Positions 2,086 to 2,169 of a stretch of DNA of 64,000 bases are shown piece after piece. The translations under genes were made by a program, and so were the position numbers. The notes beneath the pieces are model-generated. The model had not been told where the DNA came from. It made no database searches and saw only the letters and a list, made by a program, of their open reading frames with translations. Each line of letters opens with the position of its first letter. Position 1 is the first letter of the stretch. Origin of the DNA: Escherichia coli (GTDB taxonomy: Bacteria > Pseudomonadota > Gammaproteobacteria > Enterobacterales > Enterobacteriaceae); assembly GCF_046105845.1 (NCBI RefSeq), contig NZ_CP151004.1, one strand, 5' to 3'.

Positions 2086-2169
2086 GCCGGATGCGGCGTG
2101 AACGCCTTATCCGACCTACAGGAATGTGCTGAATCACCCCGTAGGCCTGATAAGCGTAGCGCATCAGGC
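2086..2169. repeat. REP/BIME element (two inverted REP units)
   Basis: gccggatgcggcgtgaacgccttatccgacctac and gtaggcctgataagcgtagcgcatcaggc, canonical REP sequences in opposite orientation. Confidence 0.7.

Follow-up and report, generated by a model that had tools for sequence, protein, structure and literature searches.

The pair of REP elements at 2086-2169, in the spacer between lldP and a YadA-like adhesin gene, raises the question of whether such elements mark the points at which accessory DNA entered the Escherichia coli chromosome. We examined this in a window of 64,000 nt from contig NZ_CP151004.1, a stretch of E. coli chromosome that runs from lldR/lldP via mtl, sel, aldB, yia/sgb, avtA, malS and xyl to glyQS and cspA. 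By blastn, positions 3722077-3779181 of K-12 MG1655 are collinear with the window in reverse orientation, and the shared blocks are 93-98% identical. REPs were located by a scan for heads and tails with mismatches allowed, and those of K-12 were called by this same scan of our own, as the MG1655 RefSeq record carries no annotated REP repeat features. Strain comparisons were made against 5426 complete E. coli genomes. An earlier note on this DNA had placed REPs at 2086-2169, 40597-40694, about 25500 and 26403-26432; all of these are present within a few bases, and the gene context that it had read (lldP, the YadA-like adhesin, ysaA/avtA and hicAB) was likewise correct.

REP types, BIME classes and the biochemistry of TnpA-REP have been published (PMC3333891). 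Here, a REP was taken to be an imperfect palindrome of 30-40 nt that follows the Y, Z1 or Z2 consensus and carries the conserved tetranucleotide GTAG/CTAC at its foot. Agreement with the consensus, including CTAC/GTAG, was found at 2086-2119 (Y, 1 mismatch), 2141-2169 (Z1, 0), 40598-40631 (Y, 0) and 40667-40695 (Z1, 0). The sequences at 25499-25527 and 26402-26435 match the Z2 head and loop with the tetranucleotide lost or degraded, and are thus relics. With up to 2 mismatches, the REP tail CTTATCMGGCCTAC finds 6 matches in the window against 0.47 expected, a number reached by none of 100 shuffles; one of the six, at 240-253 inside lldP, is probably due to chance. All REPs lie between ORFs or annotated genes, the only overlap being that of 26402-26435 with the stop codon of a GH127 gene, and all lie at gene 3′ ends, as do all five REP-bearing spacers. 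Their density (7 units in 64 kb, approximately 1 per 9 kb) is ordinary and of the same order as the average of K-12, where 584 REPs (PMC3333891) in 4.64 Mb amount to approximately 1 per 8 kb. A 451-nt query containing the 2086-2169 pair matches a median of at least 37 places per genome, and at least 40 pieces in 4679 records; together with the published K-12 count of 584, these matches place the pair in a family of hundreds of copies per genome.

The features of the lldP-adhesin spacer and of the segment beyond it are as follows.

2028-2057, minus strand: intrinsic terminator hairpin of the adhesin gene, a 13-pair stem followed by TTCTTT (terminator scan and RNA fold)
2086-2119, plus strand: Y-type REP, GCCGGATGCGGCGTGAACGCCTTATCCGACCTAC, with 0 mismatches in the head and 1 in the tail (direct reading, and scan against shuffles)
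2120-2140, no strand assigned: 21-nt linker, AGGAATGTGCTGAATCACCCC, a BIME-1 L motif without its central IHF-site core
2141-2169, minus strand: Z1-type REP, GTAGGCCTGATAAGCGTAGCGCATCAGGC, a perfect consensus match; the K-12 deletion breakpoint falls after its first 4 nt (GTAG on the plus strand)
2145-8897, minus strand: segment absent from K-12, holding the YadA-like trimeric autotransporter adhesin gene, a DUF3251/SadB-like lipoprotein gene and flanking spacer (blastn and homologous-locus annotation)
2202-7628, minus strand: YadA-like adhesin gene, which stops at 2202
7672-8355, minus strand: DUF3251/SadB-like lipoprotein gene (homologous-locus annotation)

The Y and Z1 units are present in single copy, inverted and tail-to-tail, as in a BIME-1 (RIP/RIB). 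However, the long conserved L linker of that class, which frequently has an IHF binding site, is replaced by 21 nt without the IHF core: set against the linker of the K-12 mtlA/mtlD BIME-1, AAGAACGTGCAAATTCAACAAATTGTGATGCATCCT, these 21 nt agree at either end, and the central part is absent. The arrangement indicates a BIME-1 derivative, which under the published scheme is an "atypical BIME". The pair sits between the adhesin stop codon and the adhesin terminator and hence within the adhesin 3′ UTR, approximately 300 bp upstream of lldP. Folding predicts that the paired REPs form one long hairpin (z = -6.0 as RNA and z = -3.0 as single-stranded DNA). In this the pair resembles REPINs (another name for BIMEs as REP doublets), in which inverted REPs fold into one long hairpin, and also in its vertical persistence as a doublet: E. 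albertii has the same Y unit, 21-nt linker and Z1 unit at the same place. Unlike in REPIN-RAYT systems, no RAYT gene lies within the window and no movement of its copies was observed.

Within E. coli, the lldP-adhesin spacer occurs as four alleles, the frequencies of which are rough, being read from evenly spaced rows of a ranked hit list. The first is an empty site, ...ATTGCCCTTAG|TCACACTAAG..., in approximately 10%. The second, found in O157 and BL21 (approximately 37%), is a short perfect palindrome, GCCTGATGCGCGTA(A/G)CGCATCAGGC. The third is the full Y, linker and Z1 of the window (approximately 27%), and the fourth is the K-12-type deletion (23%), for which an exact count is given below. 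When window 2058-2201 is compared with O157, BL21 and other strains, the second allele proves to be a 61-bp insert between 10-bp direct repeats, TTGCCCTTAG, at what is an exact empty site in other strains. The 10-bp repeat looks like a target-site duplication, which is not expected from transposition of the IS200/IS605 type, the kind of mobility attributed to RAYT/TnpA-REP (PMC3333891). Moreover, Escherichia sp. E1V33 and several E. coli strains have the adhesin and no REP at all.

In place of 2145-8897, K-12 has only an 11-nt stretch (a 10-bp gap according to the aligner). It retains a decayed Y REP, the whole linker and the GTAG of the Z1 REP, and then passes through the 11-nt filler ATACTGTGTTC to the yibL stop codon. 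The left breakpoint, 2144/2145, therefore interrupts the Z1 REP after 4 nt; no REP contains the right end. An ancestral empty site could not hold a truncated REP, and so the junction points to a deletion in the K-12 lineage: as we read the alignment, it is the scar of a 6.75-kb loss and not an insertion site. The K-12-type junction is present in 1261 of the 5426 genomes and is identical in the diverged representative Res13, which argues for a single event. Looking for the filler in the deleted segment, as present in the window, BL21 and TUM9757, gave no match, and a search for microhomology at the deletion endpoints gave only a possible GATAC at 8870-8874, with no clean model.

Comparison beyond E. 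coli moves the boundary of the adhesin module away from the REPs. In Salmonella arizonae and diarizonae, Citrobacter, Yokenella and Klebsiella, yibL adjoins lldP with neither adhesin nor REP, and homology of these adhesin-less genera with the window stops at ATTGGTAGGGCCAAT (window ~1983-1997). This puts the boundary of the adhesin-SadB module at approximately 1998; the REP pair begins some 88 bp further right, so that the BIME is part of the module. Two further members of the genus without the adhesin, E. whittamii and Escherichia sp. MOD1-EC7003, have deletions whose endpoints fall within or beside the terminator hairpin and not in a REP; these losses are independent of each other and of the K-12 event. 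Upstream of lldP, part of the terminator hairpin survives in both and adjoins sequence that is unrelated or a remnant. As to the wider distribution, we had presumed that Salmonella SadA/SadB adjoin lldP, and this was not confirmed, arizonae and diarizonae having no adhesin at the locus. A literature search on the position of the adhesin beside lldP returned nothing useful.

The remaining REP sites outside the aldB region, together with one site at which K-12 has a BIME and the window does not, are as follows.

11566-11585, no strand assigned: empty site between mtlA and mtlD, with a single boxC-like hairpin, CCCTCTCCATGTGGAGAGGG (alignment and blastn)
40598-40631, plus strand: Y-type REP of the BIME-1 between ysaA and avtA (perfect match)
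40632-40666, no strand assigned: 35-nt L linker with a predicted IHF-like site, ATTCAATATATTG, matching 8 of the 9 specified positions of WATCAANNNNTTR
40667-40695, minus strand: Z1-type REP of the same BIME-1 (perfect match), 5 nt from the avtA stop codon
45335-45367, minus strand: single degenerate REP between bax and xylR, overlooked in the earlier note

The ysaA/avtA element agrees with the published BIME-1: perfect Y and Z1 units, inverted, tail-to-tail, in single copy and extragenic, joined by a long L linker that is 83% identical to the K-12 mtlA/mtlD BIME-1. By these features it is a canonical BIME-1 with a putative IHF-like site. ES036 (RF02751), a family that Rfam annotates as an sRNA, scores 38.9 bits at 40632-40674 and covers the L linker and the start of the Z1 REP, so that the family model overlaps a repeat element here. 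The element varies among isolates as published for the class, being present in 4491 of the 5426 genomes; the rest are 113 bp shorter. At their empty site we looked for direct repeats and found none, only a 4-nt filler, CGTA. In these BIME-1-less genomes the last two AvtA residues differ (..KAI vs ..KVT; window 40696-40710). The spacer had been named as one of the strain-specific junctions, which it is not: it lies inside an uninterrupted 14.6-kb block common to K-12 and the window.

Between mtlA and mtlD the situation is reversed, as K-12 carries a BIME-1 (3774226-3774339) that is absent from the window. Two diverged copies of a boxC-like hairpin of approximately 20 bp (CCCTCTCCxTGxGGAGAGGG) flank the K-12 element, and the window has a single mosaic copy. 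This pattern would fit either an excision through recombination of direct repeats or an insertion of long ago with duplication of its target. Taken with the 10-bp repeat of O157 and BL21, the duplicated hairpin hints that some BIME insertions may duplicate their target, an outcome not expected under the IS200/IS605-like mechanism that has been proposed for RAYTs. Such duplication would not be general, given that the ysaA/avtA empty site has no repeat. Between bax and xylR, K-12 is longer by approximately 67 bp and has two REPs (Z2 and Y) against one in the window. The presence/absence polymorphism of these elements is compatible with mobilisation by RAYT and does not prove it.

The second segment for which REPs had been suggested as insertion sites is hicAB, which lies between two Z2-type relics.

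25499-25527, plus strand: Z2-type REP, GCCTGATGCGACGTTTGCGCGTTTTATCA, downstream of aldB, its GGCCTAC tail lost (sequence reading and blastn)
25528-26273, plus strand: hicA-hicB toxin-antitoxin segment missing from K-12 (blastn)
26402-26435, minus strand: degenerate-tail Z2-type REP, GCATGATGCGACGCTTAACGCGTCTTATCAGTATC, between hicB and the GH127 gene, containing the GH127 stop codon at 26429-26431 (compared with AVS0283)

Homology with K-12 breaks off within the Z2 REP, at 25527 (breakpoint 25527/25528), and the other end of this difference is inside hicB. Roughly two thirds of genomes lose homology at the same position, as judged from 50 rows taken at even spacing from 5359 genomes, about 35 of which do so. 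A further junction, that of the yiaTUVW segment (26386), is 17 nt from the right-hand REP relic. The whole interval from aldB to sgbE is a hypervariable spot. The window has aldB, the truncated Z2 REP, hicAB, the Z2 relic and then GH127, MFS and AraC genes. K-12 has aldB, a Z2 REP, a Y REP, a 102-bp hicB 3′ remnant, yiaWVUT and remnants of the GH127 gene (ysaD). In AVS0283, aldB is followed by Z2, L, Y and Y and then by GH127, with no hicAB. In GPEC856 a restriction-enzyme gene separates aldB from hicA, and in SCU-112 aldB is 46 bp from sgbE, the spacer holding an exact 24-nt piece of the hicB 3′ end; both alleles diverge directly after the aldB stop codon, with no REP.

The remnants give the direction of change. 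The K-12 piece (3754721-3754822, 102 bp, 82% identity) corresponds to window 26274-26386, and with the piece in SCU-112 it indicates that hicAB has long resided here and was lost several times over, and did not arrive recently. It survives in only about 505 genomes, and the hicAB type of the window occupies one locus per genome, with no sign of mobility. On this evidence hicAB was formerly general at the locus and was deleted independently. Some details of the interval may be recorded here. The 24-nt hicB remnant of SCU-112 forms the aldB/sgbE terminator hairpin. In AVS0283 the GH127 stop codon also lies in a REP, but a different one (a Y REP tail, plus strand), which suggests that the 3′ end of the gene has been rebuilt by different REPs. 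Lastly, a 56-bp stretch at window 25528-25583, from the truncated Z2 REP to the start of the hicA-upstream homology of other strains, contains TGAATATTGATTGAA, which is faintly like the BIME-1 L motif.

How often junctions and REPs meet can be set against chance within the window. We counted as junctions the endpoints of indels of at least 500 bp relative to K-12 (n = 11, six of them intergenic). Two of the 11 endpoints, 2144/2145 and 25527/25528, lie inside REPs and 3/11 lie within 20 nt of one, whereas 8/11 have no REP within 90 nt. REPs make up 3.8% of 5.8 kb of intergenic DNA, against which two or more hits give a binomial p of 0.064; restricting the count to the six intergenic endpoints gives p = 0.02. 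Counted by spacer, a junction is held by 3 of the 5 spacers with a REP and by 3 of the 36 without (Fisher one-sided p = 0.017), a result that is post hoc and rests on small, non-independent numbers, two of the three positive spacers being neighbours in one hot spot. Relative to K-12, the window has no REP at the rhsA site, at either end of the segment with the yiaY paralogue and the Fic gene, or at the GH127-AraC deletion. The association in the window is suggestive and agrees with the literature; alone it proves nothing. A genome-wide test of the kind proposed in the earlier note was published in 2005. Chiapello et al. 2005 reported an enrichment of BIMEs in strain-specific loops that consists largely of the BIMEs themselves coming and going (PMC1187871).

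Taken together, these data argue against REPs as marks of insertion: the K-12 state is a deletion that truncated a REP, the module boundary lies approximately 88 bp from the pair, and the hicB remnants record loss. The comparisons indicate that the adhesin and hicAB are old residents, later deleted in many lineages, and that the REPs did not mark the sites of their insertion. What finds support is a weaker proposition, already published: REPs are located where strains differ, and at times one of them provides a breakpoint. The corrected reading of the window is that REPs are bystanders which occasionally provide one endpoint of a deletion.

We consider it very probable that the REP/BIME copies of the window are ordinary members of their family, that BIMEs come and go, and that their hairpins are occasionally one endpoint of a deletion. 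The polymorphism of the BIMEs is seen in the four lldP alleles, the presence or absence at ysaA/avtA and mtlA/mtlD and the change of copy number at bax/xylR. From time to time a REP hairpin would supply one endpoint of an illegitimate deletion, as with the Z1 REP of K-12 and the Z2 REP after aldB; judging by the properties of the family, the hairpins may stall replication or attract breakage. By the same analogy the elements may stabilise mRNA 3′ ends or act as partial terminators, may bind gyrase, Pol I or IHF, and would have been spread and maintained by a single-copy TnpA-REP. For both events with a breakpoint inside a REP, the opposite end lies outside any REP, and clear microhomology is absent.

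The window thus resembles the known BIME-associated loops, with small indels of a BIME only and BIMEs at loop edges at lldP, mtlA/mtlD, ysaA/avtA, aldB and bax/xylR. To these it adds exact breakpoints and allele frequencies from 5426 genomes, and nothing new in kind. Descriptions of REP/BIME elements, of their polymorphism and of their enrichment in loops go back to the 1990s and 2000s. The presence or absence of whole BIME-1 elements and changes of BIME length among E. coli isolates are on record in that literature (Bachellier 1997, as cited in PMC1187871; PMC3333891). REP-mediated rearrangements and REP-targeting insertion sequences (IS1397 and the IS110 family) are comparable in that REPs serve as sites of DNA breakage or joining (PMC1525189, PMC12288879). 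Unlike in those cases, no IS is present at the REPs of the window, and the events are one-ended illegitimate deletions and not recombination between REPs. If REP hairpins were shown genome-wide to bias the ends of deletions, this would add a modest mechanistic detail on how E. coli loses accessory genes.

The most serious alternative is coincidence. REPs and tolerated indels both favour spacers at 3′ gene ends, and this could make them co-occur without any causal link; REPs and junctions would then simply accumulate in the same non-essential spacers, with no mechanical role for the REP. The 3′ position of all five REP-bearing spacers is what this explanation predicts, and it accommodates the 8 of 11 endpoints with no REP within 90 nt, the adhesin deletions of E. 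whittamii and MOD1-EC7003 that end at a terminator hairpin, the REP-free divergence of GPEC856 and SCU-112 after the aldB stop codon, and a binomial p of only 0.064 against the intergenic null. It accounts less well for two breakpoints that fall inside 29-nt REP units and not just within the same spacer, for the Fisher p of 0.017 at the level of spacers, and for the enrichment of BIMEs in strain-specific loops across the genome (PMC1187871). We regard pure coincidence as a real, if lesser, possibility.

A bolder reading would take the base of the REP hairpin, which coincides with or is 1 nt off the CC|TAC site cut by TnpA-REP, as a preferred endpoint of large one-ended deletions that strip old accessory modules (the adhesin and hicAB) from E. 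coli lineages. If so, endpoints at the hairpin foot would mean that REPs shape gene loss rather than gene gain; we think such a preference unlikely.

We hold it very unlikely that the REPs and BIMEs were entry points for the adhesin module and hicAB, through recombinases that target REPs or through recombination between dispersed REPs. It is true that hicAB lies between two Z2 REPs with their tails facing, like a BIME linker carrying cargo, and that REPs are known targets of some IS, e.g. IS1397 (PMC1525189; PMC3333891). However, K-12 has a truncated Z1 of which GTAG only is left, and it is implausible that an inserted segment should by chance have completed a REP, so that the polarity is that of a deletion. 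The hicB remnants in K-12 and SCU-112 likewise speak for loss and not gain, and the hicAB type of the window, at one locus per genome, gives no sign of mobility. For the adhesin, the module boundary against adhesin-less genera at ~1998 falls outside the BIME, and E1V33 and several E. coli strains bear the adhesin without any REP; here the entry-point explanation is largely refuted.

TnpA-REP cleaves at CC|TAC in inverted REPs (PMC3333891), and CC|TAC on the minus strand of the Z1 REP corresponds to plus-strand GTA|G. The K-12 junction is at this position or 1 nt away, and coincides with the cut if the G is assigned to the right flank (GATAC, window 8870-8874). That RAYT (TnpA-REP) itself made the deletions by cutting at a REP is nonetheless highly improbable, as the assignment of the G is ambiguous by 1 nt and depends on a 5-nt match in a single case, no C|T dinucleotide is present where the break falls on the right, and the breakpoint on the hicAB side (TTATCA|TGCCTAC) is 5 nt from the cleavage site. 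Deletions of 6.7 kb are also not known to be made by this enzyme.

Other differences from K-12 in the window may be noted. At 15549-15580, yibH adjoins yibF where K-12 has an 8.2-kb rhsA element (rhsA, yibA, yibJ, yibG and others), and neither strain has a REP there. At 20924-23815, between yiaY and aldB, the window has extra DNA relative to K-12, with a yiaY paralogue (82% identical) and a Fic-family gene of 431 aa. Lastly, an intact sok antitoxin RNA (Rfam) and the cspA 5′ UTR thermoregulator lie at window 59425-59576 and 59859-60287, respectively, and K-12 carries an IS150 insertion at the equivalent of window ~59503, inside the hok/sok locus.
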